IMG/VR virus record: IMGVR_UViG_2061766007_001638
Source: an uncultured virus (IMG/VR IMGVR_UViG_2061766007_001638)
Lineage: Duplodnaviria; Heunggongvirae; Uroviricota; Caudoviricetes
Direction: 5' to 3' (one strand)
Length of the DNA: 61,347 nt
The translations under genes were made by a program, and so were the position numbers. The notes beneath the pieces were generated by a model. The model was not told the origin of the DNA, did not search any database, and saw only the letters and a list, made by a program, of their open reading frames with translations. This document shows positions 8,386 through 56,558 of the stretch, piece by piece (the first letter of the stretch is position 1; every line of letters begins with the position of its first letter).

Positions 8386-11300
8386 ATGAACGAAGTGTTT
8401 CTTGGCCGTCCGAGCCCTAAGATAGAAGAGTGGATAAAAAACCACAAGCAGAGAACGGTTTTTGTCATGTCGGACGGACAGACCGAGGAGTATTCCGTGG
8501 ATAAAATCAACGTCGAATGGCTCCAATAGAANNNNNNNNNNNNNNNNNNNNTGGCTAAAAAACTTCTCAAGAGTTGAAATTGGTTGGGAGGTTGTCGAAA
8601 TAGGGGAAGGTTCGTTCTAGAACAACACTGCACTTGAAAGCGTAATAATAAGCGGCAATGTAAGAAAAATAGGAACAGACGCTTTCAAGGGGTGTACTTC
8701 TGTAATCGACGTGGTATGCGTGGCCCATCCGAGAACCCTCCAGTGGGACGACGGAAACTGCGACGATTTCAGGCCAAACAGGGAAACGGTGTTGCATGTA
8801 AACTCGAATTTCCTAGACATGTACGTCGGAAAATTTCAGGATAAGGTAAACGTGACGTTCCAGGGGGACGGAGAGTATTCAACTGGAACTTCGGTTAAAT
8901 ACGACGAACTTGCACAGTCGTTCGAAATTCCAATCCAGGACATCGGCCTTGCACCTGGAACCTATTCCGTCGGATATGTTGGAGAAGGAAACCAGANNNN
9001 NNNNNNNNNNNNNNNNNNNAAGCGGTAATATCATGAACAGCATATACTCACTAAACAAATACAGCGTCGTCCCGAACGGGGCATAGTCAATCGGGGTGTT
9101 CGATTCCAATGGAAACCTGAAAAAGACGTTCTCGATAGGAGAATTGAAAAAACAGTCTGGAGAGATAAAGTACAGATTCGGGGTTCTCGCTGATACACAC
9201 CAGAACACGAACCAGCAGACGGAAAACGAGAACCAGACGGACCTCAGGAATGCGCTAAGCGTCCTTTCTGAAAAGGAAGGTGTCGACTTCATATGCATAG
9301 CTGGTGACATAACGAACGACGGATGCAACACTGTTCAACAGATATCTAGCTTTGCGAATGCGATTTCTGCGTCGAACGTAGCTCCGACATACGCAGTCGC
9401 TGGAAACCACGACTGCACGAACAACGGATTCAACAATTTATCATTTGACAACTGGAAGAAGAACACAATAGATTTCATTAAAGGTTCGTACAAGGGAGTT
9501 GATACACCTACAATAACATATTCAGATTCAAAACTTGCATTCTACTTCAAGAAAAACATTCCAGGCACGGAAAACTCAGATTTCTTCATATTCCTAGGAA
9601 TGAATATCTGGAACTTTTCTGGAAACATATTCCTGGACAGCGACATAAATTTCGTTTCGAATATCCTGAAGGGAGAAGCTGCAGATGCAAGGTGCTTCAT
9701 ATTCTTGCACCCGTTCTTCAAGAACAAGGCTGGAGACCTACATGACCTCTATTACAGGAACAATATACTTGGAGGGAATCAAGGCCAGAAGCTGATGAAT
9801 CTCTATTAGACCCATCCGAATACACTATGGTTCAGCGGACACTCGCATTGGAAGCAGTATCTTTCGTTCTAGCCACCTTTAGAGGCAAGTTATGCTGGAA
9901 TATACTCAAACGTCTACAGGGACGAAAATAGGTTAAGCTGCGGATGGACTGTGCATGTCGCTTCGTGTGCATATCCAAGAGACGCACATTATGATGAAAA
10001 CCAACATAAATGGGTAAGCGACGCCGAGCAGGATTGGACAAGCAAGGCCTCCGAAGGAATGGTCGTGGACGTATACGACGACAAAGTGGTCATAAGGGGA
10101 ATCAGTTTCAAGGACGCTTGGGGAGACGGAACTGGAGACCAAGGATACATTACAAGATACTAGCCATGCGGAACGTATGGGCTTTCGGCCCAGTCTGGAA
10201 GTCCAATTCCAATCCCAGATGGTTCTTACACTACAATCAAATTTGTGGATGGAACCAGTTATAAAATCCTCCATAAATAGGACCAGATATCTTTTGATAT
10301 TGGACTTTTAGAGTTAGAAGGAATAACCGACGGATGGACTTATAAACCACGTGAAATAGAATTNNNNNNNNNNNNNNNNAGGTGACTATGTCTGTCAATA
10401 GTGCTATAATTTGACTTCGATATCTATTCCACATGGAGTAATTACTATTTAGTATGGTGCTTTTGCCTATACTGGTCTAACTACGGTGGAAATACCAGAA
10501 TCTATCGTGTATATATGCGGTTCGGCTTTTTCATATTGTGATAATTTAGAGGAAGTCCAACTGAGATGTGGAATACACTCAATTGAAGGAAACGTATTCT
10601 ACAACTGTACTAATTTACGTANNNNNNNNNNTACCACTGGGGTCTCGGAGTCGACGACTATGGAACCCACACCGTGGTCGTGTACTGCGCTGACGGACCG
10701 TTCGTCGTGAACGGAGGGGAAGACAGCAGCGGAAGCGAAAGCGGAAGCGAGGACGTTTCCGAAGATTTTACCTTTGTGGAATACTACGATGGTAATACTT
10801 GGTCTGGGTTGATAGATGGAGAATTGTCGTATGTATCTATACCGAATATATCTTGGGCAAAAAATATCGTCATTGGAAATTTGGTAACTTCGATTTATTA
10901 TGACACGTTTTATGGTTGCTATGAGTTGAGAGAAATTACACTTCCTTATAACATAAATCCCGATAGTATAGACAATAACGCGTTCTACAACTGTCCAAAC
11001 CTTAATGTAGTGAACGCACCTGGAATGTACACGTATGACTTCGAAAACTATAATTACGNNNNNNNNNNAGATGAAAGCTTAACCTACGTTGAGTATTATG
11101 GTGGGGGTTCATGGAGTGAGTATTTAGATGGATATGTTTATGGTTGGACGGACATATATGATTTATCGAATGCCGTAAAAATTAAACTCGGCGATGAAAT
11201 AGCCTTTATTTCTTAGTTTGACAATTCCCCTAACCTAACTGAAATCACCCTTCCAGAATCCCTTGGAGCACTTGGTATAGACAATAACGCGTTCTACAAC

Positions 11301-14160: not shown

Positions 14161-14805
14161 ATGAAAAACCCAATCAAGACCATTGGAATGCTTTCCCTCG
14201 GCCTTTTTGCGACATTTGCCTCTGCAAAGGACGTATTCGACTTCAAGATGACCTTGAAAGTCCCGAGAGTATACAACAACGAGCGCTCGCTCGGCTTCAG
14301 GAAGTACCAGAAACAGATTATAAAGGGAGAGATGGTGGTTGACTACGATTCGGATGGAAACATAAAGGAAATCCAGTTCAGGAACGTATTCAACAGGACC
14401 CACAAGACATCAAACGGGAAAAACGTCACTTACGACGCAAAAATTGACGGAGATGCATTTTATCCGAGGTTCAACGCGATAGGAGACAACAAAAAGAGGA
14501 AGTTCAACGTACCAAGCGTATGTTTTTTCTTTGTCGCGGAGCCTTCATACAACATAGGATAGCTGAACGAGGACAACGCCCTATACCTGATGGTGTCTGG
14601 AAGCGGTCTGCTGCATCCAAAAGGATACATAAGGAAACTTGGCGGAAACGTTTCTGGAACGATTGGATGCGGATGCTCCGCATACGGACACATATCCCCG
14701 ACTAGGGTTCTCTGGTTCTGGGGGGCCTCTTCGCAAGTTGACGACGTCGCTGCGGTCTACGGAAAGTGGAGCGCAAAGTTCAACAGGAAAAAATCCGACA
14801 GGTAA
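14161..14805 (+). CDS. Secreted protein with signal peptide (TAG read-through at 14560)
   Basis: Signal peptide ...FATFASA; ORFs 14161-14562 and 14590-14805 are in one frame; AGGAGG SD; GTAAATA 14126. Confidence 0.75.
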
Positions 14806-14827
14806 ATATCCAAAAAGAAAATAGAAT

Positions 14828-17058
14828 ATGGGAAGCGCATTTTTAGGGAACACCTCTTCCAATATGAAGAGATGGATTGAGACGCACCGTCCAGAGACAC
14901 TTTTCTGCATGTCCGACGGAACGAGGGAGTATTACGACATACGTGGGTGCGTTGACGACGGCTGGCTACTGGAAAACGGATTCAAAGACGGTCAATCTTG
15001 GACAAAAGACATAAAAAGAGTCGTCATTGGACTGAATTCGTCTGGAATTGGTGGATTTGCATTCTCAAATTGCCAAAGTCTGGAGGACTTTTATGCATCT
15101 GACAATGCGGTGGAATTTGGAAATGGTGCGCTAAGCGGATGCGTTCGTCTTTCGTCTGCTGTGCTTCCAGAAGAAACAAAAACGATAAGCGAATCTCTTT
15201 TCTCTGGATGTACTGGACTTACGTGGTTTAAAATTCCAGGTAAAACTGAAATAATAGGGAAAACGTCATTTCAGGGATGTTCAAATCTTGAAAATGTCAG
15301 TATCCCAGACAGCGTTAAATCAATCCAAAATGGAGCATTCAGGGACTGTAACGAAAACCTTTATGACATTCAGACTTTGCCTGGGGTCAAGCTTGTTGAC
15401 GGATGGGCGTGTGAAATCGTGTACCAGGATTTTCAACATGGGGCATTGGATTTGACCGATGTACGAGGAATCTGCGAGATGGCGTTCTATGGATGCGATA
15501 AGATAGAACACGCGGAAATTCCAGGGAAAATTCATGAAATTCCTCATCAATCATTTGCGTCATGTCCGTAGATTTCATCGGTTTTGATGCACGACGGGGT
15601 TCAGAAAATAGGAAATTACGCTTTCATGGGTTGTGGAAACCTGATTGAAGTAAATCTTCCAGACAGCGTATTGGAAATCGGAATGGGTGCATTCCAGGGT
15701 TGCTCCAAACTTTCATCTATCCATTTAGGAAACGGCCTGACTTCAATTGGAAAAAATTCATTCAATGGTTGCAGCGAACTTTTATACGACGTACAGACGA
15801 TACAAAACATAATCATAGTCGATGGGTGGGTTATCGGCTATGAAAACGGATTTCCATCATAGTTAGACTTATCCCGTGCAAGGGGGATTGCCAATGNNNN
15901 NNNNNNTAGCAAATAACCCTTCCAGAATCAATGTCGAAAATCGGGGACGGAGAGTTTATGTTTTGTCAATCCCTTGAATCGGTTTCAATTCCTACAACCG
16001 TAAATGAAATAGGACATGAGTCTTTTGCGATGTGCGATTCTCTTGAAAGCATCACCATTCCAGAAAACGTAGAAACTATAGGAAACAGGGCATTTTACGG
16101 ATGTACTGGAATGACATCCATAGAAATATAGAATGAAGACGTCGTCATATCAGACAATTCGTTCAGGGGGTGTTTTTCCGTCGTTATCGTGGATATTCCG
16201 AATGGAATAAGACAGATAGGACAGTGCGCTTTTCAATTCGACGCCGACGGACAGGAGATAATGTTCACAAACCAGGACATGCAGACTATAAGGGAATGGT
16301 TCGACAACGGGTATTTTGGAATGGGCTGGGGCCCCGTCACCATTAACTGCTATGACGGTTCGCTATATTGCGTATACGGGTCCGNNNNNNNNNNNNNNNN
16401 NNNNNNNTCCAAATAACGGGGAGAGTCAGTCATATGACATAATTGGAGAACTTGCGGCAGGGTACAACGGTTATACAACAAAGAACATCTATAAAGTTGA
16501 AATAGGCTCTGGCGTCACTAAAGTTGCCAACAGGGCATTTGAGAGGAATACAAGTGTAAACACACTGTCAAGCGTAGTGATTTATGGAGTCCCGACAATA
16601 GGAAATTTTTCTTTCAAGTGCCCATCAATCAAAAACGTCCTAATGACGGAAGGTGTAAAGAACATAGGAAAGCAGGCTTTCAGGGAAACGGCGATTGAAC
16701 AGATAACGATTCCAAGGAGCGTGGTCAAAATAGAAGATTCCGCATTCATATTCTGTTACGACTTGAAAAACGTCAACATTCTCGGGGATGAACTTGAAAT
16801 TGAACAGGGTGCGTTTTGGGGATGCAACAAAATGGAAATGGTTTCGATTCCAAACGGAAACATAACCATAGGGGGAAGCGCATTTGAATTCGATAAAGAG
16901 GAAGAAGACCCTCCAGTATATTTCAAAAACCAGNNNNNNNNNNNNNNNNNGGGTACTTCGGTGATTGGGGAAATATGACCGTCTAGTGCACAGATGGAAA
17001 ACTTTCATGTGTTTATAGTTATTCAGACAACCAATGGCACATAACCCCAATTTAGTAA
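14828..17058 (+). CDS. BspA-type leucine-rich repeat protein (TAG read-through)
   Basis: Many IPxxVxxIGxxAFxxC repeats; in-frame TAGs 15569, 15860, 16129, 16984, 17053; ends TAA; N-terminus paralogous to the 8386 gene. Confidence 0.8.
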
Positions 17059-22398: not shown

Positions 22399-24447
22399 TT
22401 ACCAACTTGGTCCATCGAACGGGTCGTCCTCGAATCCGAACAGATTGTCGATTCCGTCGGTTCCGTTTGACCAGCTGCTCCACATGACGTTTAGCTGGGT
22501 CCTGTCATATTGATTCTGATTGTTGTTTCCAGCGGAAAACATCGGGTCATGCAAGTAATTGTCATGTCGAATCCCTCCGACGACGTCGTTTCCAGTGTTT
22601 CCAATCCTTTCCGTCGTACGCCCTCCGACCTGTTCTCTCATGAGACGTATAAGCTCGTCTTCAGACAGGACATTTTTCTTCATGATTCCGTCTATTTCCG
22701 TTTTTCCGTCAGTTTCCGCCTTAATCTGCTGTTTTACGAGCTGTTGGCGTTCCTGGACTTTTCTTTCGTGTTCACGGAGGAATTCATTGTTGTTCTTCAT
22801 CTTGTAGAACTGGAAATCCCTAACCTGCACGCTTTCCTATATTCTCTGAATGTCTGACGGGGCGTAGTCGTAATACGGAGACAGTGTCTTCGGGAATACC
22901 ATTCCCGTGCTCGACTCGAACGTGCTGTCCACGTTGAAGTACCTTTCCACGTTTTCTGGGTTCAGAATCCAGTTCATCCAGATGAACGACATGATATGGT
23001 CGTCGTATGCCCCTTTTATCGCGGAATATACGGTATGAACCTTCAGGTCTTTCTTTATGAAAGACGAAAACTCGTCTATAAGCTCATAGTCGTAAAGCTC
23101 ATATCCGAATCCCACGGTAGTCATCATGTCCCTTGTCCAGAGACACGCTCTCGTCTTCAGTTGCCAATTCGAATCTATTCCGCATCCACCCTTGTTCATC
23201 ATGACAAAGTTCTCATACGCATAAGTAACCCTGAGCTGTTCTATGAATCCGAGGGATATTCCGTTCGATTCACATGCGATGAACGGATTCGCGTAAAGCT
23301 TCAATATTTCCTTCGCAACATACGCGAACTCGAGAATCGATGTCTTGTTGTCTGAAAACTTGCAGCACATCCTTATGTTGGAGAGGTCTGTGACATCCCA
23401 AATATAAAGGACAGACGAGTCCTTTCCGACTCCCTCTGCCACATCCCCAGACGCAAGATATGTCTTTTTGGGGTCGAAGTCGTGCCACATCGTGAACTGA
23501 TATGTCTTCTTTCCGTCTGGAGACNNNNNNNNNNNNNNNNNTAATGTATTCCCCTTGTCTTGAATTCCGTGAGCTGTATCTTATGCCTGTCTGCAGTTTC
23601 GTCTGAAATCAGCTTTACCGTAGTAATATCATCGAGAAATTGATTGTCGAACTCCTGTGCAAATCTCGTCGCACCAATCGATTGTATCTGAATCTTCTTC
23701 CACTGTTCGTCTCTTCCTGGAACCTGCCACCAGTACATTATGAACGGCTTCCATCCGTCCGCGTTGTCTGGGTCATTTTTGTTATTGGCCTTTTTCCACA
23801 AGTCATAATAGAGATTATGCTTTCCGTTCGGCGTCGAGACGATTATCACCTTTCCGTTCTTCGAGGCGGAAATAACTGGATATACTGCGGCAAAAAGGGA
23901 ATCTGCTATGTTTTGTGGAACAAAACTAAACTCATCAAGAATCAACACAGAACAAGATTGTCCACGAGCTCCTTGAGCAGAACAAGAAAATCCCATTATA
24001 GTGGAACGATTCGAAAATTTTATTGATGATTTGTTAAACTCGGCGCAACCTGGTTTCAACCACGTAGGAAGATACGAATATCCAAGTTTGATTCTCTCGA
24101 GAAGTTCAAGTGCCGTTTGTTCGCGCTATGCAAGCATCATCACTCTTTTATCGGAATGGAAACACGTCAACCAGAGAACGTATATGCAATACGATGTACT
24201 TTTTCCGAGCTGTCTGGATGAACACACAATTGCTCTGTTCTCATTCACCATAAATTTTAAAAGTTCCTTCTGAACATCATATGGTTTTATTATCTTCAAG
24301 CCTTCTGGTGTTTGTATCCTATAGTAGTTTTCAGCGAAATAGACTATATCCTCTCGACATCTCTTTATTTCTTTTAGCCTTTCTATGAGCATGTCTTTTG
24401 AAACATACTCGACATGATTTGGCTTTTTTACTGTAGCAAGCTCTTTG
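22399..24447 (-). CDS. terL: Terminase large subunit, T4 gp17-like (start masked; TAG read-through at 24126 and 22837)
   Basis: DIVYFAENY, SSRQLGKST, LILDEFSF, IVSTPNG, RFAQEF, GDVAEGVGKDSS, ESN, YDDHIMS; MLA(TAG)REQTALELLERIK..Y..LP.WLKPG is continuous. Confidence 0.92.
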
Positions 24448-24488
24448 NNNNNNNNNNNNNNNNNNNNNNNNNNNNNNNNNNNNNNNNN

Positions 24489-25232
24489 ATCCACAACCTC
24501 TCATACACGCATGTAAAATCATGTCACTTCTTATTCCAAGGCATTTACCAGCTTCTGTTGAATTTTCCCATTCTTTTATAATCTGTTCGGTATTCGCATC
24601 AATTTGAAGCACCTTTCTAATATCTCTTCTCGGTGATGGCATTCCAATTCTAGACTTACTTATTTTTTCTTTGGTTTCTTCACTTAATTTTTTACCTTTA
24701 TTGCTCTCACTTATCTTTTTCTTTGTTTCCTCACTATGGTGCTTTCCATAAAATGGACTGTTTTCACCAGTCATAGCCAATTTTAATTTTTGTCTTGTTT
24801 CTTCTGACACAATTTTTCCTTTATTTGCGATACTTATTTTTCTTTTGTGCTCATCTGAAAGATGTTTTCCCCAGTTTGGATTATCTTTTCCCTTTCTCCC
24901 GTAAAATGGATGTTTTTCACCAGCCATTTTTCCCTTTAATGCTTCGCTTATTTTTCGCTTTGTTTCCTCTGTCTTTGGAATACCTTTGCTCCAAGACGGC
25001 TTTCCTTTCTTTTTTTCACTCATTCTTAATCTTGTTTCTTCTGAATATATTCCATGTTTTCCCTTGTTCCAAGGTATATAATTTCTTTTTGCCATTCTCA
25101 TTTTTTGTCTGGACCCATCACTATACCAAGATTTTTGATTCCCACCAGTTTTTCGATTGTAAGTATCGTCTCGTTTGACAAATTCTTCATTCACTATTTG
25201 TTGTTTTCGAATATCTAATTCATATCCATCAT
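24489..25232 (-). CDS. Homing endonuclease with NUMOD3 repeats and NUMOD1-like tail (probably GIY-YIG; N-terminus masked)
   Basis: YN.KTGG followed by repeated HSEETKxKIS and C-terminal VLQID...IIKEW.NS.EAGK.LG. Confidence 0.8.
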
Positions 25233-25570
25233 NNNNNNNNNNNNNNNNNNNNNNNNNNNNNNNNNNNNNNNNNNNNNNNNNNNNNNNNNNNNNNNNNNNN
25301 NNNNNNNNNNNNNNNNNNNNNNNNNNNNNNNNNNNNNNNNNNNNNNNNNNNNNNNNNNNNNNNNNNNNNNNNNNNNNNNNNNNNNNNNNNNNNNNNNNNN
25401 NNNNNNNNNNNNNNNNNNNNNNNNNNNNNNNNNNNNNNNNNNNNNNNNNNNNNNNNNNNNNNNNNNNNNNNNNNNNNNNNNNNNNNNNNNNNNNNNNNNN
25501 NNNNNNNNNNNNNNNNNNNNNNNNNNNNNNNNNNNNNNNNNNNNNNNNNNNNNNNNNNNNNNNNNNNNNG

Positions 25571-26076
25571 AAAAGAAGATGGTTCCAGCTATGTCCGTCT
25601 TCGAGGATTCCAAGTATTTTCCCCAGATAGTCGAGGACAGGGACTACGACTTGTTCGGACTTTTCGGGAACTCTTGCAGGTCTTTGTATCCAGAGCTCGA
25701 CTGCTTCGAGCCTGAGAACGACTTCCCGAGCTTCATGAAGAAGATGACTATCTATAAGAGGATTAACATAGGAGACTACCACACCCGCAGATGGTGCTAT
25801 GCGGACAAGCTCGAGGCTTCCCTCAAGGAATACAAGGAAAACCTTTTGGACCCGAAGAAATGGCTTGCCAGATACGAAGACAGAAACGACGACTTTCTCC
25901 TCGATGTCGTTCAAAAGAAGGTTTCCGCCAAGAAGTGGAAAGAAGCCCATCAATATCTAGTGGCCTCAATTGACGAAGTCCTGAAGAAAATCGAAGACGT
26001 AAAGGCATGGATTGGGGACTATTCCGACATCCTTGACCCCGACTATATTGTGTTCGTCACGTGGATGGACAGCTGA
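25571..26076 (+). CDS. Hypothetical protein (5' end masked)
   Basis: Contains RDYDLFGLFGN, ends IVFVTWMDS. Confidence 0.6.
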
Positions 26077-33094: not shown

Positions 33095-34946
33095 ATGGAA
33101 AGTTTCAAGAAGTTCCTCAAGGAGAATATCGACGACATCGAAAAATCCATATCCGATTTTGACCCGAACGAAACGTTCATTCATGTCAACGACGAAGGAG
33201 AGGTTGTTGTCGAGAACTTGAACCCAGACTCGGAACTTTCGGCAACGCAGAACTCCGACGACGTGGACGAGGACGNNNNNNNNNNNNNNNNNNNNNNNNN
33301 NNNNNNNNNNNNNNNNNNNNGAAAGCTGGAAACGAAAAGACCTGGGGTGGAGAAATGATAATTGACCTGAACTTCGGAAACGAAACTAATAACACCGAAG
33401 GACAGGTTAAGGAGGAACTACAGGAAAAGGAAACCCTGAAGGAATGGAAGTTTGACAAAAACGGAAACGCTGGAGAAGAGGACAACTCGGCTTAGGAACT
33501 TCTGAAAACCCTTCACCAGAGAAACAAGGACAATCTGAATACCGACACGCTGAAATATCTCTTCGAACTCGGNNNNNNNNNNNNNNNNNNNNNCAAAAAT
33601 ACGTTATAGTCAACAAGGATGGTGGAGGATACGAGCTTCAGGTGAAGGACTTCAAGGAAAAGTATAGACATCCTCTGAGCGACAAGGAGATAGACGAGCT
33701 TGTTGCGGAAAAAAGGGGGGAGAACGAGACACCCCCAAAACAGCCAGCCAAGTTCGAATTCGACCAGGAAGGAAATCTCCTAAAGAACGGAAAGCCTATT
33801 CAGAGAAGATACAAGAAGAAATTCATCCAACAGCTACACAAAGCGGCGGAAAAGATTTATGGAAAAGGCAAGGTCCACTACAAATGGCAGGCTTCTGAAG
33901 ACGGAAGCGACTGGACGGACAAGCTTGAAGTGAACACAAGCGAGTGGGACGACAGCGACGAGACGAACGCAAAGCGTTTCGACACGGCTGAATACAAACT
34001 TGTCGGACCAGAAGACCAGGAACGGGCATTGAACATCATTCAGACAACGGTAAAGAAAGCCAGGGAAAAGAGGAAAATCGACATTGGCTTCGACAAGGAC
34101 ACGAGACAGTTCACCCTGAACGGTAAACCGATGGACAAGGACCAACTCAGGGCTTTTGTCGTAGGACTCAACGGAGGAGTCGGAAACGTAAAGAAAGACA
34201 AGAATGGAAATGTCAAGGACCCAGACGAATATTGGAAGCATTTCAAAATTTCCATAAAGGGCTCGAAGGTCGGAGACATAGCGAACTTCTCGCTTCCTCC
34301 CGTACAGACGTGCAACAAGGCGGCTCCGTGCATTTCCGACGGATGCTATGCCGTGAAGGCGTACGGCCTTTATCCCGCGTCTAGGGTGGCTCAGGACATA
34401 AACCTGGCCCTTCTGAATGAAAAAAAATTCGACTAGTTTGTAAAGGAAGTGTCTATAGCGGTAAGAAGCACGTTCAAGAAAACGGTGGGAGCCATGAAGG
34501 AGGGTGAGAAAATCCAGTATTTCAGGTTCCACGTCTCTGGAGACGTGTTCTCGAGCGAATATTTGAACGCAATATGCGACATTGCCGACGCAAACAAGAA
34601 TGTGGGATTCTGGACATACACCAAACAGTATGACATTCTTCTTAAGAACATGGATAGGGTTCTAAAGACAAAGAACCTTTCGGTTCTAGTTTCGTGCTGG
34701 GGAGAATTCAGGCCGAAAGTCTTTGGAGATAAGTATAAAGTACTCGAAGAGAATTTTCCATTGGCGTATCTCGACGACGGTTCGGAGGAAATGAAAAACT
34801 ACATAGACACGAAAGACGGACAGGGGGAACCTTTTGTCTGTCCATGCACGGATTACAGTGAGGCTGAGGTCCACTGCAACAAATGCTTGAAATGCTACAA
34901 AGTTAGCGAGATAATGAACACAAACCTTATATTCAAGAAGCACTGA
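33095..34946 (+). CDS. GP88-like protein with long N-terminal extension (TAG read-through at 33493 and 34434)
   Basis: FSLPPVQTC...C...CYA before the TAG and FRFHVSGD, FWTYTK, CPC..C..C..C after it; GTAAATA 33060. Confidence 0.75.
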
Positions 34947-42358: not shown

Positions 42359-42922
42359 ATGAACAACAGACAAGACAATAACAACGGGGGCTCCAAGTCG
42401 CGCGAGCCCGTAACCTACACAGACTACAACATATTCAGGGGAAACGTCCGACTCGTAGGAGAGGGACAGTCCCCAATTATAATCGACAGGGACGAAGCCA
42501 TAGAAATGGCGAAATCCAGGGGAATGAACCTCGTCCAAATAGCGTACAACAAGAACGAAAACCCGCGTTCCGTGTGCAGGATAATGGACTATTCCAAGTT
42601 CAAGTACGAACAGAAAAAAAGGGAAAAGGAATCGAAGAGGCGTCAGAGAGAGGCGATGACCGAAGTAAAGGAAATCAAGTTCTCAATACGAATCGACGAC
42701 GGGGACAAAAACACAAAGATACACAAGGTAAGGGAGCTTCTTTCGGAAGGCGACAAGGTCAGGCTTACGATACGGCTTCTCAGGAGGGAGATATCCAAGA
42801 CCGACTTCGCAAAGGTCGTGATGGACCAGATTATTTCAGAACTCTCGGACGTTGCGGAAATAGACCAGCCGTCTTCTTTGTGCGGAAGTAACTTTTCATG
42901 CATTATAAGAAAGAAGGGATAA
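42359..42922 (+). CDS. infC: Translation initiation factor IF-3
   Basis: VRLVG, A..MA...GMNLVQI, VCRIMDYSKFKYEQKK, VKEIKF...ID..D..TK, GDKVRLTI. Confidence 0.93.
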   Translation: MNNRQDNNNGGSKSREPVTYTDYNIFRGNVRLVGEGQSPIIIDRDEAIEMAKSRGMNLVQIAYNKNENPRSVCRIMDYSKFKYEQKKREKESKRRQREAMTEVKEIKFSIRIDDGDKNTKIHKVRELLSEGDKVRLTIRLLRREISKTDFAKVVMDQIISELSDVAEIDQPSSLCGSNFSCIIRKKG

Positions 42923-50080: not shown

Positions 50081-50523
50081 NNNNNNNNNNNNNNNNNNNN
50101 NNNNNNNNNNNNNNNNNNNNNNNNNNNNNNNNNNTTTCGTAACAAGTAGCGAGTTTTTTAATGGAATATGAAGAAATACCGTCGGACAGAAAGTGCTGTC
50201 TGAATTGCGCGGCGTTCGAGGACAGGACTGGTTTTTGCAGGAGGCNNNNNNNNNNNNNNNNNNNNNNNNNNNNNNNNNNNNNNNNNNNNNNNNNNNNNNN
50301 NNNNNNNNNNNNNNNNNNNNNNNNNNNNNNNNNNNNNNNNNNNNNNNNNNNNNNNNNNNNNNNNNNNNNGAATGATGTATTGTTCAGAAATTGATTCTTC
50401 AAGTTTCATCCTTCTTCTCAAAACTGATTGGTGAGCTTGTCAAGGGTATTCCTCATGATGGCATTGAACTCTTGCAACTATCCATTTAGTTTTACGGAAG
50501 ACTCTGTTATCTTTTAATTTTAT

Positions 50524-51327
50524 TCATTGTAGTCCGAACCTTGACTTGTCCAATGCGTAGTTGGCCTGCTGCTCGGCCAAAGTGAGCTACCTGTTGTAAA
50601 GCCTGATGCAGTAGACATCGCCTATTATTCCACTTGAAGATGGATATGGGTTTCCGACAAACTGCCTTATGGGCGAAATCGCTCCCTGTGGAATAGTAGC
50701 GTCGCCCTCAGCAATCCAGGATGTCACGACCCACTATGTTCCGTTTCTGACAATCCTCACAGGCGTTGAACCTCTGTCGTAGTTGCTGTCTGTTGTCGGA
50801 TATACCACGGAGAAGCCCCAAGTTCCAGTTGGCATTGAAGTTCCGCTCTGTCCAGACGGTTCAGCATATCCAGTAGAGAACATCCAGCCGCGCTTTCCAT
50901 CATTAACGTCCCAGGCGAGCATCCTTCTTGTCATCTGCCAGGTGTTGCTCAAAAATCTCGTTCCAAACGTGAATGCCCTGATTCTGCTGTTGTTAGTGGT
51001 CACGTTGTACGAGTCTTCCACCTTGAAACAGACTTCCATCGTCTGAATGTTCTCGCGCGGAATGGCGTTCTCGCATATAGCCCTTGAACTGAACGTGTCA
51101 AGGTGGAATGAGTTGCTTTTCCAGGAGCACTGGTCAAGTGTTGTGAAGTCATATGTGCTTCCTAAACTTCCGAGATTCTTCCACGTCGGCGCGCTCGCGT
51201 TGTGAATTCCGCCACCAGCGTTCCACTCGCCGTCATATTGCGCTATGAGTCCGTCGGTGACGTAGGGATTTGTCCAACCGCCAGCCTTCTGCACCCAGAA
51301 AAAAATATTCTTACCAAGAAGGCTCAT
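50524..51327 (-). CDS. Tail-associated module, LamG/ConA-like (type B; TAG read-through at 50734 and 50587)
   Basis: PYVTDGLIAQYDGEWNAG...WKNL; C-terminal CIRLYNR(TAG)LTLAEQQANYALDKSRF matches paralog CIRIYSRILSEDEIKKNHEIDKIRF. Confidence 0.75.
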
Positions 51328-51403
51328 GCCGACTCCTTACACTCCAAACGGCGATAAGAGGAAAAGAAGAGAGAGAGAGAGAGATGTCGAATATCTTAAA
51401 CAT
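51311..51403 (-). CDS. 30-aa leader mini-ORF containing a (TC)8 tract
   Basis: GGGGAGG SD 5 nt before ATG 51403; MFKIFDISLSLSSFPLIAVWSVRSRHEPSW*. Confidence 0.55.
   Translation of the reverse strand: MFKIFDISLSLSSFPLIAVWSVRSRHEPSW
51369..51384. repeat. (GA)8 / (TC)8 microsatellite
   Basis: Read directly. Confidence 0.95.
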
Positions 51404-51424
51404 TTATACCTCCCCATTCATATT

Positions 51425-52092
51425 TTAGGTTTTGTCCGACCACGTGAACGCGCCCGTGCCTTGGTTGCGGTAAAGCCCGTCTGTGCGCAGAGAGCCGTCT
51501 GGGTCCATTCCAACGGTCGGGTTCACTCGGTCGTACNNNNNNNNNNNNNNNNTTTGTTCGTGAAGCGGACGGGCACGAGGTCGCGAACCAGCTCTCCGCC
51601 TATCGTCCACATCTTGCAGTATTTCACCTGTCTGACGCCACCAGTGTCAATATGCTGGCTCTTGAACAACCAGAATCCAGAATTGTCGTGCAGTCCAAGT
51701 ACATTGAGCGCAGTGGGCCTAAGTTTCACGCCGTCGAAGTACGCACCATCGTTCAAAAGCTGCGCCACATGGAAATTGGTGTCATAGTTGATGTTCGCCC
51801 AATAGCTTGAATTATCGGGTCCTGCTCCGCATCTGTACCCATTGTAATACCCGACCAGATACAGTCTGGCGCTCGGATTGTTGTTCCAGTACCCGAACAC
51901 CCACGTGTCGTTCGACGGCCTTGACGTGTACCGATACTCAATCTCGACCTGGTAGCCCGTATACTGCGCGGGCGGCACACATCCAGTGTCGATATACTGT
52001 GTTCCCGTGGACTCCAGGTACTCCACCTCCGCGTCGTAGGGGAGTCTTTTAATTGGAGAGGACTGGTAGAAGTTTTTAGAAGCGATTAACAT
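51425..52092 (-). CDS. Tail-associated module (type A)
   Basis: LPYDAEVEYLESTGTQYIDTG...LVRDLVPVRF...YDRV...NQGTGAF. Confidence 0.75.
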
Positions 52093-52102
52093 TTACTACC
52101 TC

Positions 52103-52780
52103 TCATGATATATTGAACCTGATTTTGTCTATTTCATGGTTCTTCTTTATTTCATCTTCGGACAATATTCTTGAATATATCCTTATGCAGTGGGCGNNNN
52201 NNNNNNNCTGTTCACGCGTGTCTCCGAGTATGCCAATCATTCCCTCTTTAAAGCCCCACGTATCAGAAGAGTCTTTTACCATGAGCCCAGAGTTCTTGTA
52301 ACCACGCTGAACAGTAGATGTCAAGGTTGCGGTTTCATTTGGTTTCATCTTGTATAAAGAATTTATAGCGAAATAATTCGACCATTCTGGACTATTTCCT
52401 TGTTTAAGAACGATACATGGGTACAGATTTGTATATAATATCGGTCCTACCACGAGAAGGGCCTGTGAACCTCCGTATATATCCGACGGCATTGTTATGC
52501 ACATTTCAAGTGTTTCCAGCTTTACTCCGCTGTAGTTCATTACGGCAACTGGCTTCATGTTTGAATTTGATTTGATTCTCCCAACTCCGTTTTTTGTCAA
52601 TACTGAAACCGCGCTTCTTAACGATAGGTCATTTCCGTTCCCAGAGGAATCAATCCATTTATACTGCTCTTTGCCTCGGTTGATTCCATCCCACAATGCG
52701 AAAATACCGTCTTGAACGTAGTCTTTTTCAGTTGGTGTAGATTTTCCATGGAAAAACGTGTTTCTCGAGGCTACAATCAT
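52103..52780 (-). CDS. Tail-associated module, LamG/ConA-like (type B)
   Basis: DYVQDGIFALWDGI..G...W.D.SGNGNDL...CIRIYSRILS..EI..N..ID..RF; GGAGGTG SD. Confidence 0.75.
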   Translation of the reverse strand: MIVASRNTFFHGKSTPTEKDYVQDGIFALWDGINRGKEQYKWIDSSGNGNDLSLRSAVSVLTKNGVGRIKSNSNMKPVAVMNYSGVKLETLEMCITMPSDIYGGSQALLVVGPILYTNLYPCIVLKQGNSPEWSNYFAINSLYKMKPNETATLTSTVQRGYKNSGLMVKDSSDTWGFKEGMIGILGDTREQXXXXAHCIRIYSRILSEDEIKKNHEIDKIRFNIS

Positions 52781-52800
52781 CTCGTCACCTCCGAAACTCT

Positions 52801-52819
52801 AGAGAGAGAGAGAGAGAGA
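52801..52819. repeat. (AG)n / (CT)n microsatellite, at least 19 nt, cut off by Ns
   Basis: Read directly. Confidence 0.95.
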
Positions 52820-52877
52820 NNNNNNNNNNNNNNNNNNNNNNNNNNNNNNNNNNNNNNNNNNNNNNNNNNNNNNNNNN

Positions 52878-53494
52878 TTGTCTTCGCTATTCCAGTTTTC
52901 TCTCGGATTTTTTTTTTGGACTGAATCATAAAATACGTGTGCGTTGTCCGAGATTCGTACACATGGATATAAATGGGCGATTTCGATTCCGTCTCTTGTA
53001 ATAATGGTTTCTCCCAACCCAGTTCCTTTGCATACTGACCTGTTGACGCCGTTNNNNNNNNNNNNNNNNCCGTTGAAACCAGAATCACTTGTCGCTGTTC
53101 TTACGGTTCCATTCCAGTCAATCGTCGTTTTAGTGGAGGAAACATCGCATTTCATAATGTTTCCTCCAGCTCCAGTCCCAATCGTAGACCAATACTATCN
53201 NNNNNNNNNNNNNNNNNNNNNNNNNNNNNNNNNNNNNNCAGCAAAACCGTATCCAGTCCACGTCCCAGTTTCAAAAAACGCCCCAAACCAACACCAACTA
53301 CTGTAGCTGCTAGAAGAATACCCGTCTGTTTCAAGGTGCCAATTTCCGTCGTTGTATACGCCAGTTTGGTACATGCATAGAGTCTAAGTTGGATTTCCGT
53401 TATCGTCCTTTACTATATACTTGACCCTCCTGTATCCAGAAGGAACAGGTTCACTGGTTCCAAAAGAGAAAATCTTCCTTGAAGCTATCAACAT
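52878..53494 (-). CDS. Tail-associated module (type A-like; TAG at 53384; 3' end masked)
   Basis: MLIASRKIFSFG...PSGYRRVKYI...; C-terminal IAHLYPCVRISD...FYDSV. Confidence 0.65.
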
Positions 53495-53498
53495 GTCA

Positions 53499-54029
53499 TC
53501 AGATTTCAGTTGGTATCATATCCAAGAATGAATCCACTTCTTCCCTTGTCTTTCCAAGAGCGACTGCAGCTCCGTCCAATATGGAATTCCATCTTTCTTC
53601 CGTTGGATATCCCTCCTTGACGTAATTGCAGTCTGCAAGGGCTTTCCAGGCGCTATAATCTGGCTTTAGTTCAATCGAGGAAAGATACTGCTCTGCGACA
53701 GATAGGATATGCGCGTCGGCAAGTGCCCCCTTTACCGAAAGCCTTGTCCATATTCTTGGAGGAGGCGGAGGAACTTCCCTTGTCTCATATGTCCTTTTCC
53801 ACTTGTCTCCGTCGCGCTCCCATCCAACGGCAACTGCGTAATATCCATCTTCCGTTTCTGGCGGCACTTCATATATTTCAAGATATGGCTGAAGTCCTAG
53901 CTTCTGTCGTTCTACGTTTACAACCTGGAAATGCTCTTCAACTGGATTGCACACAAGGGAATTTCCTATCCTCACGGCAGAAGGTGCCTGTACCATGATT
54001 CCGTTTTCTAATGTTCCGTACTTCTTCAT
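53499..54029 (-). CDS. Hypothetical protein, possibly tail fibre assembly-related
   Basis: MKKYGTLENG...AP...NP...GW...YE...PPPPR; lies between the fibre-like gene and the module cassette. Confidence 0.55.
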   Translation of the reverse strand: MKKYGTLENGIMVQAPSAVRIGNSLVCNPVEEHFQVVNVERQKLGLQPYLEIYEVPPETEDGYYAVAVGWERDGDKWKRTYETREVPPPPPRIWTRLSVKGALADAHILSVAEQYLSSIELKPDYSAWKALADCNYVKEGYPTEERWNSILDGAAVALGKTREEVDSFLDMIPTEI

Positions 54030-54047
54030 TTATGAAATTCCTTTCCG

Positions 54048-54911
54048 TTATCCGTTGTTGGATGGAGGTGCTACCTCCACCATCTGTTTAAGAGACACTG
54101 CGAACCAGCCCTGCTTCATTTCGGTAAACGAATACGACCACGTTCCAGAAAGAGATGGAACTGGAAACTGTGCAGTTGACGGGTCTGAACCGTCTACGTA
54201 GAAATGAACCTCTTCCTGTCCGCTCGGAGTAAACGTTATTAACCCTCCGAAATCCTATACGGTCTGTGGAATGTCCAATGTTACGATGAAATCCCTTACT
54301 CTATTTCCAGGCGGAGGAAACGATAACTGCGTTGCTGCGTCTATCGAGAGGTAGTTTACCGCCATGTCCTCAATTTGACCAGATTGAATCTCGTTAAAAA
54401 CGTACTTCGTGTCTTCTACGTCTGCCTTTGTCGAAAGTTCGTCGCTAAGTCCGAAAAGCTGCCCAAGGTTCACTGCGTCGGAAATGTCCGTTCCATCCTG
54501 TACGTTCTTCACCTGCATTCCGTACATGTTATTGTATTCGGATGATACGACGTACACTACGTTGCTTATTGCTCCTTTTTCGAGTATTTTATAATATTCT
54601 GTGTCCGAGACATGCAAGAAACTTACGTCGCTTTTGTAACCGTCGACTGAAATCTGGGGAACCGATGAGACATCGGCCTTTGAAGATATCTCCGCGTTCA
54701 CGTAATCGCTTAAACCAGAGACGTCTTTGTAGCTTATTATCTATCCAGATGTTATCTCGTTCAATGGAAGATTAGTCTCCGTAAAAGTATTTGTGGNNNN
54801 NNNNNNNNNNNNATATATGTTCTCGTCGTCTCCCCTTATTTTCTTGTTGTTGTCGGAATAATATCTTATAAGATTCATTCCGTCTAGTGTCACGTTTTCT
54901 GAACTTATCAT
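54048..54911 (-). CDS. Tail fibre-like protein (TAG read-through at 54741 and 54255)
   Basis: KAD repeats, VKNVQDG...DAVNLGQL (YadA-stalk-like), C-terminal LSFPPP..VRDFIV.L...YSFTE...WFAVS. Confidence 0.6.
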
Positions 54912-54912
54912 G

Positions 54913-55987
54913 TTAAACTCCAATTATGTGGTTTTTGAGCGCNNNNNNNNNNNNNNNNNNNNNNNNNNNNNNNNNNNNNNNNNNNNNNNNNNNNNNNNNN
55001 NNNNNNNNNNNNNNNNNNNNNNNNNNNNNNNNNNNNNNNNNNNNNNNNNNNNNNNNAATCCAATTCCATGAGATTGACACAATCCTAGAACGCGTATTTT
55101 CCTATGTATCTCACATAAGGAACGGAAATCCTGATTTTCCTGCACTGTTTCTGGAACGCCGTATCTCCAATCGATATTAGACGATTGTTCGAATCGAATA
55201 TGGTGGCGAATCCATGGGTCTGCAGGAACTCGTCTGAAACGTCGCGTCCTATAATGAAGCTTCCGCTTCCCTGGTTCTCGAGAAGATTCTTCCCCACCTT
55301 GTCGTAAAGCCCGCCTTCGTCTTCCCCTTGTCCATTTGTAAACTGGACTGGAATAGCGTCGAATAGCAACTAGCCATTCTCGTCGTATATCTAGAAACTT
55401 TTGAGCTTGGCGGAACCCATTAGACTGTCGTCTCCATATCCACTCTGGATGAATATTTTGTAGTTCTCCCCGTCTATTTTGACAGTTGATTCGTCCTGGC
55501 TCGTCCCTACGGTTGTTCCGTCCACCTTTGAGGATTTGTTTCCACTGAAAGTCTGTGATTCCACTTCAACGAAAACATCTCCAGTGGTGTCTAGCCCAAG
55601 TCCTTCCGCTGGAGTGATTCGGTTTACCGTACATTGCTCGAAAATGTATCCATCGGACCCGTTGGCCCTCACGTCGTAGATAAAGTTTTCGCTTCCAGCA
55701 ATTTCCCCAGAACCGTATGCATTTTCTCCAACAAAAGCGAAGGTTGCGACGAATCTCTTTCCTCCGCCAGAAATGGGTATTCCAGTGTCAATCCACTGCA
55801 ATCCAGTGGATTGAATGTAGCTGACCTCTAAATCATATGGAACATTTCCTCCGCCCCCAGCTGGCGCTGCATAGTAAATCGGACAGTGTTCGTTCACCAT
55901 CTGCGCAACCTGGAACTGACAATATCCCTGTATTACGTTGCACCAATATGGGTTGTCAGACGGATTATATTCGCAAAAAGCTTCCAT
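54913..55987 (-). CDS. Type A module + BspA-type LRR protein (TAG read-through at 55391, 55370, 55085; end approximate)
   Basis: VPYDLEVSYIQSTGLQWIDTG...KSF*IYDENG*LLFDAIPV...LYDKV...NQGSGSF...IGKYAF*DC; GTAAATA 6 nt before ATG. Confidence 0.7.
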
Positions 55988-56018
55988 AAAACATATTTAC
56001 AGCTTTTTGCGGATTAAA

Positions 56019-56558
56019 TCACATATTGAACACTTCTTCCACGGTTTTATATCCCTGGAAGACCTTAGACGGCTTTTTCGTCTTTTGCGTAAACTTGAAT
56101 TCATCTAAAATTCCGAATTTTTTGAAGAATTTCTTTGGTTCTAGCTTGTATATGTAATATCCAGTCTTCTGGTACACCCATTTCTGGTCTATGGAGAAGC
56201 TTCTCTGATTCCTGTTGAACGACCCCTTTACATCTACGTATATCTTGTTTCCTTCTACTCCAAACATAACCTTGAATTCGGATACCAGGTCCGTGAAACT
56301 AGGATTCACTTCTATTAAAAAATCTGGACTATACACGTGGTCCTGAAACAAGGTCTTTTCTTTTTTCCCAGATTTATACATTGCTTTCTCGAACAACACA
56401 AAAGTACACGGCTGATACCAGAAGTCTTTCACAACTCCTTTTTCGTTCATGTGGAGAAGCCACTTGTAAACCAAAACTTCCTCATTGCTGTCAACCTACA
56501 CGGTATTTCCAGTTCTAGTGTCCAAAACCTGAAATTCGCTGTTTTTGTTCTTTCCCAT
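56019..56558 (-). CDS. PD-(D/E)XK nuclease, DUF1064/TnsA-like (TAG at 56496)
   Basis: MGKNK...TV(TAG)VDSNEE...YQP..F.L...YSPDF...YVDVKG. Confidence 0.65.

Follow-up and report, generated by a model that had tools for sequence, protein, structure and literature searches.

Dinucleotide repeats in candidate leader frames ahead of lectin-like module genes of a bovine-gut phage

The DNA analysed here, IMG/VR virus record IMGVR_UViG_2061766007_001638, is a stretch of 61,347 bases (the window) from a bovine-gut (cattle) phage. On the minus strand, where the genes discussed lie, two type-B module genes, gene A (52103..52780, 225 aa) and gene C (50524..51327, 267 aa), are each preceded by a perfect (TC)n tract. 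We propose that these tracts are leader-peptide coding repeats of the oipA and opa kind, placed ahead of an internal Shine-Dalgarno sequence (SD) and ATG, and that they form a frame switch whose output is a different isoform or a fusion. This reading, which draws on analogy, we hold tentatively as quite possible.

The tracts themselves are real and non-random. Tandem Repeats Finder reported only two period-2 arrays in the window, 51368-51384 (8.5 copies) and 52801-52819 (9.5 copies), and in a regular-expression scan of all 61,347 bases no other dinucleotide run exceeded four units; runs of exactly four units occurred elsewhere only at 48-55 and 42645-42652. The string (TC)7 is present five times, always within one of the two tracts, and was absent from 100 dinucleotide-preserving shuffles. 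These three analyses thus bear out the initial annotation, which had noticed the tracts about 20 to 40 nt before both type-B genes as the sole long dinucleotide repeats. Tract 1, (TC)9.5 at 52801..52819, ends 20 nt before ATG 52780 of gene A (locus 1). Tract 2, (TC)8 at 51369..51384, lies inside a leader mini-ORF (open reading frame), is part of a 29-nt all-pyrimidine stretch (51356-51384) and ends 41 nt before ATG 51327 of gene C (locus 2). Both are of the type prone to slippage, i.e. perfect repeats of about seven or more units with a unit that is not a multiple of three. (TC)n encodes Ser-Leu in all frames, just as (TG)n encodes Cys-Val in all frames. Frame tables computed for both loci show that each repeat phase sets the stop of the upstream frame differently relative to the downstream SD and ATG, and the stop positions originally given for each phase proved correct.

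The window contains 76 masked (N) stretches. One of them, 52820-52877, directly adjoins tract 1, so that the 9.5 units are the visible part only and neither the tract nor the leader start at locus 1 can be seen completely. Mask lengths are not faithful either: contigs have extra letters at mask edges (e. g. 51537-51552, 53054-53069, 53200-53238), and reading frames across masks are therefore unreliable.

Several features of the sequence show that the phage uses TAG as a glutamine codon (code 15). Translated with the standard code, the window breaks up into short ORFs, many of which merge when TAG is read as a residue. In-frame TAGs are spanned by the Pfam domains GP88 (33642-34946, plus strand), LRR_5 (14639-15916, plus), Metallophos (8910-10385, plus) and Terminase_6N (24494-23373, minus), and the module at 55987 has another one in its conserved C-terminal block. 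The C-terminal motif of gene C, which is shared with gene A at E = 6e-7, is located beyond the first TAG of gene C. Many of the 2139 relatives of gene C (HMMER, 267-aa reading with TAG as Gln, E ≤ 1e-3) align in a single stretch over the TAG position, and the closest ones, e. g. P0004 and P0005, have Gln in the TAG column. A TAG in module A', upstream of gene A, likewise falls on the Gln of a TGTQYIDTG-type motif, as judged by eye. A suppressor tRNA with the anticodon CTA was not found; the 61-kb window, itself part of a genome, holds no tRNA of any kind. TAG-to-Gln recoding (code 15) is known in gut phages, where the accessible part of the source places it in structural and late genes (PMC9523058). 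The phage studied here resembles them in reading in-frame TAG as Gln, and differs from them in being without a suppressor tRNA in the 61-kb window. With TAG as Gln, the gene at 51327 ends at 50524 and not at 50734. The standard-code version of this gene used in the initial annotation is thus cut short, its conserved C-terminus lying past an in-frame TAG. For the same reason the apparent TAG stop before ATG 52780 is a sense codon.

This has direct consequences at locus 1. The start region of gene A (52777..52792) comprises the SD GGAGG (52788-52792) and the ATG (52778-52780). One frame of tract 1 (frame 3) has its stop at TGA 52785-52787, within GGAGGTGA, and another (frame 2) at TGA 52777-52779, which overlaps ATG 52780 (ATGA, 52777-52780). 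The remaining frame meets TAG 52799..52801 directly after the tract, in frame with ATG 52780. Of the three-way layout that had been described here the coordinates are right, but the TAG is a Gln codon in this phage rather than a stop. With Gln at this position the in-frame phase translates as ...SLSLSL-Q-SFGGDE-MIVASRN... and runs into gene A. The earlier statement that the repeat acts not by frameshifting the gene itself therefore fails at locus 1, where the in-frame phase reads into gene A as a fusion. A TAG in exactly this position, after a slippery tract and before a start codon, has to our knowledge not been described. The frame entering tract 1 may come from further upstream. Module A' (52820..53494), which is type-A-like, starts at ATG 53494 (MLIASRKIF...), and two TAGs lie in its frame. 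In the coordinates of the window this frame stays open across three masks and continues into tract 1 and gene A (463 aa with TAG as Gln), a frame link that is uncertain because the mask lengths are not faithful. A second slippery site, an A10 homopolymer at 52908..52917, lies in the 3' portion of A', some 90 nt ahead of tract 1. In X3, a relative (~94% identical) from a different sample, this run is one A shorter (A9), as seen in one contig with a depth of 3.9.

At locus 2 the leader start is visible. A mini-ORF of 30 aa as assembled (MFKIFDISLSLS..., 51311..51403) begins at ATG 51403, 5 nt behind the SD GGGGAGG and 21 nt past the stop of gene B, and holds tract 2, as the initial annotation had found. 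An even smaller ORF, 51404-51421 on the minus strand (ATG, four codons and TAA), is located between the gene B stop and the leader ATG, giving a TAAATG junction. According to the in-silico repeat table, the leader ORF ends at a TGA overlapping ATG 51327 (ATGA, 51324-51327) with 7 or 10 units, at a TAA 14 nt within gene C with 8 or 11 units, and at a TAA 12 nt before ATG 51327, in frame with it, with 6, 9 or 12 units. This last TAA (51337..51339), inside TAAGGAG, bars a leader-module fusion in the in-frame repeat phase, and no long isoform is therefore possible at locus 2.

The leader of locus 2 has counterparts in the module family. In a survey of the top 150 family representatives, 111 had the lectin module at the N-terminus. 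In 80 of these the conserved N-terminal motif stands right at the start, and in 31 it is preceded by at least 30 extra residues. About three quarters of the 31 extensions have the look of a Sec- or Tat-type signal peptide when inspected by eye. One relative has the leader MCKIF...LSLALFASLDGGAA-M, to be compared with MFKIF...SLSL in the window. A relative's leader joins its module as MCKIFLAVLSLALFASLDGGAA-MLVAARASF, and the window leader with 9 units would read MFKIFDISLSLSLLFLLSPFGV-stop-GVG-MSLLGKNIFF in silico. Tract 2 lies inside an SD-led ORF whose design matches the in-frame leaders of the relatives, and the mini-ORF appears to be the local form of the leader that these carry in frame. 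Hence it is not a dedicated mini-ORF, as had been assumed, but matches a hydrophobic leader carried in frame by many relatives. The GG residues before the internal Met are encoded by the module's own GGAGG. This is seen directly in locus L107, described below, and from the GG before Met an internal SD is presumably present in the other leader-bearing relatives as well. Twin-arginine-like leaders (..TRRDILKGGAGLAAILAAGKAPA..) were found directly before the N-terminal motif in many type-A and type-B proteins (P0050, P0074, P0092, P0103, P0113, P0120, P0122; loci L027, L038, L050, L067, L069). They suggest that part of the family is exported, which would be odd for presumed virion proteins.

A parallel case exists in an unrelated phage. 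Locus L107 is the end of a complete viral record (G001, 181,382 bp, 58% GC) and carries two type-A modules and one lectin module. Between the type-A modules, the stop TAG is followed by AGGAGG, 4 nt and ATG 1191, then by the leader MRKTIGTLIAVCVCVC..., and finally by GGGAGG, 6 nt and GTG 1276, which starts the next module (VLAARNAM...). The leader contains (TG)13 at 1220-1245 (G001 180138-180163), the only dinucleotide run of more than six units in the 181,382-bp record. With 11, 14 or 17 units, leader and module form one open frame without a stop, and with 12 or 15 units the leader stops at GTGCTAG, right by the start codon of the module. With the 13 units of the assembly, the leader frame is out of phase across the module, one unit away from in-frame fusion. 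An uninterrupted frame from the repeat into the module is thus available in L107 with (TG)11/14/17 and at locus 1 if TAG is Gln (the upstream start being masked there), and it is not available at locus 2. The same record has an in-frame 22-aa leader (MSNAITAISILLSISLCGGRCC-M) before its lectin gene (L107:1931-2010). The DNA of this leader contains (TC)4, with GGAGGGAGG and ATG behind it, and represents an unexpanded form of the layout in the window. The string GGAGGTGCTGCATGCTGATAGGT..., comprising an SD and a start, is repeated before two modules of the L107 phage. All three long dinucleotide repeats of the two phages are located in the short interval, a few tens of bases long, that separates the start of a leader from that of a module.

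A possible mechanism is the following. The tracts would be slippage-prone repeats that code for the hydrophobic core of short leader frames before the two lectin modules. Gain or loss of one unit (2 nt) would leave the leader hydrophobic, because (TC)n is Ser-Leu in every frame, and would change the downstream frame. A ribosome coming from the leader ATG, or at locus 1 possibly from the upstream module, would then meet the SD and ATG of the module in a frame set by the repeat. At locus 1 the in-frame phase would yield a long leader-bearing or fused isoform, as the sole stop in this path is the TAG read as Gln, whereas at locus 2 it would end at the TAA 12 nt before the ATG. In the remaining two phases the frame would stop within the SD, at the ATGA overlap or 14 nt inside the gene. 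From its own SD and ATG the leaderless protein could be made in any phase. That the tracts slip in the population, that the leaders are translated, that the amount or the isoform of the protein is affected and that the leader has a role in export, we infer.

Repeat-driven phase variation in leader peptides is textbook knowledge for bacteria and rare in viruses. In Helicobacter pylori oipA (hopH), as far as the available part of the source describes it, CT repeats are located in the region coding for the signal peptide, and slipped-strand mispairing shifts the frame (PMC10564699). Like oipA and other Hop genes, the window has the same CT/TC unit in the 5' leader coding part. It differs in that the gene is a phage gene, that an SD and ATG of its own lie downstream of the repeat, and that the in-frame phase is closed by a stop at one locus. 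Since the regulated gene has this own start, the "off" phases need not abolish the protein. For Neisseria opa, the accessible text reports CTCTT coding repeats in the leader peptide and phase variation by frameshift at ~1e-3 per generation (PMC3960869). The pyrimidine-rich coding repeat in a hydrophobic leader is common to opa and the window genes, but the opa repeat is a pentamer and not a dimer, the product is a bacterial outer-membrane adhesin and there is no internal restart. In phages, contingency loci are described in the portion of the source seen as homopolymers in T2/T4 genes and polyG in the receptor-binding protein genes of Fletchervirus, with mixed progeny, and the same portion states that simple sequence repeats are under-represented in the tail-fibre genes of 41 coliphages (bioRxiv 10.1101/2025.10.21.683753). 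These loci resemble the window in having repeats of a hypermutable type in phage genes, receptor-binding ones included. However, they are homopolymers inside the gene body, whereas the window has dinucleotide repeats in a leader frame before the gene's own start.

A number of observations weigh against a frame switch. The proposed check of relatives for repeat-bearing mini-ORFs turned up the (TG)13 leader of L107, but TC or GA runs of at least five units were found in none of 110 related loci (445 kb, some contigs counted twice), nor in 16 further type-B (lectin-module) loci. Dipeptide repeats are likewise missing from the leaders of all 31 leader-bearing representatives. In L001, the nearest relative of gene B, another gene follows downstream and there is no tract. 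That the leaders resemble signal peptides was judged by inspection and from two TAT_signal matches below the Pfam cut-off; further support for leaders or signal peptides was sought in NCBIfam, where there were no matches. At locus 2 the in-frame phase is shut by TAA 51337-51339, as would be expected if the leader is decaying or if the effect is purely of the upstream-ORF type. Finally, the contigs of X1 and X2 show (TC)8, the same as the window; these are assembled contigs, probably from the source sample and thus one sample.

The data on repeat length and distribution have to be read with their scope. The comparison of repeat lengths was made on assembled contigs, in which X3, X4 and X5 have small shares. 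No X1 or X2 contig covers 52164-52995, a gap that proves nothing. X3 spans tract 1 with 92 letters against 86 window positions, which include the mask of unreliable length, and the repeat itself is passed over in this comparison. Among 115 distinct module-start contexts, a long run at the module start was present only in the window and in L107. In all IMG/VR contigs the pattern (TC)7 or more, up to 30 nt, GGAG, 5-12 nt and ATG occurred at 39 loci, none of which (0/39) had the family motif downstream. Neither the flanks of tract 2 nor the right flank of tract 1 had a match in IMG/VR. Both tracts are of recent origin and specific to their lineage. A scan of 50300-56200 for promoters and terminators stayed at the level of shuffles. 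SD sequestration or another RNA structure formed by the pyrimidine tract was considered as well and rejected, the local folds being no more stable than those of shuffles (z +1.0 to +1.4).

A serious rival is a neutral origin of the tracts, which would have expanded in a leader that is dispensable. Since the modules have starts of their own, the leaders could be relics in which TC-rich hydrophobic codons were expanded by slippage under relaxed constraint, to a length without selected consequence. The h-regions of leaders tolerate almost any hydrophobic sequence. Locus 2, with its out-of-frame repeat count and its in-frame TAA, carries two disabling features, the tracts are absent from all other family loci examined, and the junction is not conserved in the nearest relative L001, all of which fits such a relic. 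However, long perfect repeats are usually short-lived without selection, as contingency loci illustrate, and here three of them (8, at least 9.5 and 13 units) occupy the same position in two unrelated phages, with no run of more than six units elsewhere in 61 kb and 181 kb. In addition, every visible leader start has kept a strong SD and an ATG, and the in-frame path is intact in L107 and, from the tract on, at locus 1. We regard a neutral relic as somewhat unlikely. The initial annotation had proposed another model, in which the sole effect of the repeat is on the stop position of a small upstream ORF, and this in turn tunes termination-reinitiation or occlusion, without any long isoform. The stops do lie as it described at both loci, with ATGA overlaps that can be reached at 51324-51327 (7 or 10 units) and 52777-52780, and the 12- and 15-unit phases of L107 also stop right at the module start codon. 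The leader ORF of locus 2 is preceded by a strong SD and opens 21 nt past the gene B stop, and at this locus coupling could be the sole functional output, since the TAA bars the in-frame phase. A dependence on re-initiation is nevertheless not indicated, because both genes carry strong SDs of their own (GGAGG for gene A and AAGGAG for gene C, each 7 nt before the ATG) and need no coupling. Moreover, the supposed TAG stop of locus 1 is a Gln codon, relatives carry the leader as an in-frame fusion, nothing in the local RNA folds stands out or points to sequestered SDs, and the full-text literature that was searched contains no precedent joining a dinucleotide repeat, phase variation and translational coupling. 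This model seems quite unlikely to us.

The tracts could also act at the level of DNA. Polypurine/polypyrimidine (TC)n and alternating (TG)n would form non-B DNA at the junctions and promote recombination that shuffles modules. The modules are indeed mosaic, L001 being near-identical to gene B in the centre and different at the ends and in its neighbours, and many other contigs match the conserved segment 51983-52044. Yet the visible breakpoints of L001 are not at the tract, and TC and TG repeats form different structures; what they have in common is the frame step of 2 nt and frame-independent hydrophobic coding. They are also placed precisely between one SD-ATG and the next SD and start, and a role in recombination is very improbable.

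The frame switch would concern modules of a particular kind. The minus-strand block from 50.5 to 56 kb consists of small modules that all have an N-terminus similar to M-[LI]-[IV]-A-S-[RK]-N, and in strand order it reads A-type, tract, B-type, A-type, tract, B-type. Type A comprises gene B and the modules at 53494 and 55987, with the motif PYDAEVEYL...TGxQYIDTG; gene B (51425..52092, motif LPYDAEVEYLESTGTQYIDTG) ends at TAA 51425-51427, and its apparent frame break at 51537-51552 is an artefact of the unfaithful mask length. Type B comprises gene A, with MIVASRN at the N-terminus and CIRIYSR...N..IDK.RF at the C-terminus, and gene C, with Gln encoded by TAG at residues 198 and 267. The type-B family is large: of the relatives that HMMER found with gene C as the query, 597 have E ≤ 1e-10. 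Gene C itself has no Pfam match, but its relatives P0050, P0010, P0013 and P0014 match Laminin_G_3 (PF13385) above the Pfam cut-off. The AF2 model of gene C (pLDDT 81, pTM 0.83) has lectin-like jelly-roll domains as its best Foldseek matches (E 8e-8, TMq 0.52); the match at rank 16 is a cyanopodophage tailspike. By homology and predicted fold, genes A and C can be assigned to the LamG / ConA-like lectin modules. That the modules are receptor-binding parts of the tail is plausible, and lectin-type modules probably take part in host recognition. In other phages A-type and B-type parts are fused in one frame.

Other searches returned little. A search of 5.8 billion proteins for relatives of gene A found only gene A itself, known phage genomes gave no match to 50700-53200 (distant blastn) or to gene A (tblastn), and back-translated patterns revealed no gene C relatives in IMG/VR. 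For the standard-code ORFs of the cluster, Pfam and PHROGs gave nothing but a YadA_stalk match and a weak tail-fibre PHROG for 54701..54255. In L001, which shares 83% amino acid identity with gene B, the central 370 nt are almost identical, and the N- and C-terminal parts as well as both neighbours differ. L001:1-1680 is a mosaic, its downstream gene being a homologue of the window gene 54029..53499. The DNA at 51983-52044, which encodes the PYDAEVEYLESTGTQYIDTG motif, is matched at 88% or more in many other contigs of the same metagenomes, with a summed depth of up to 33 versus ~7 for the phage. This conserved segment could serve as a recombination anchor for the exchange of modules. Elsewhere in the window, the terminase large subunit is encoded in two overlapping frames within 22399-25953 of the minus strand (N-terminal domain 24494..23373, rest 23490..22399) and adjoins a 540-aa ORF with three NUMOD3 motifs of the homing-endonuclease type; the terminase gene may be split or invaded.

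The literature that could be searched describes neither a dinucleotide repeat in a leader frame before an internal start, nor its recurrence in two unrelated phages, nor its combination with a recoded TAG. Phage contingency loci are only just being described, so far as homopolymers inside genes. A more far-reaching interpretation of the frame switch, which is speculative and which we consider unlikely, is that a stochastic switch with two outputs has arisen twice independently in rumen phages, once with (TC)n and once with (TG)n, i. e. bursts in which the lectin module is leader-bearing or fused, or leaderless, and that the Gln-TAG adds a dependence on a late-expressed suppressor. If this were true, a heritable random switch would be combined with a temporal one, the long form being suppressor-dependent. 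In any case, small ORFs and "stops" in such phages should not be interpreted until the question of stop-codon recoding has been settled. If the frame switch is confirmed, a design of this kind need not turn a gene off but could choose between isoforms or set their ratio, and it would provide a simple sequence signature for phase-variable genes of host range or surface interaction in uncultured phages.

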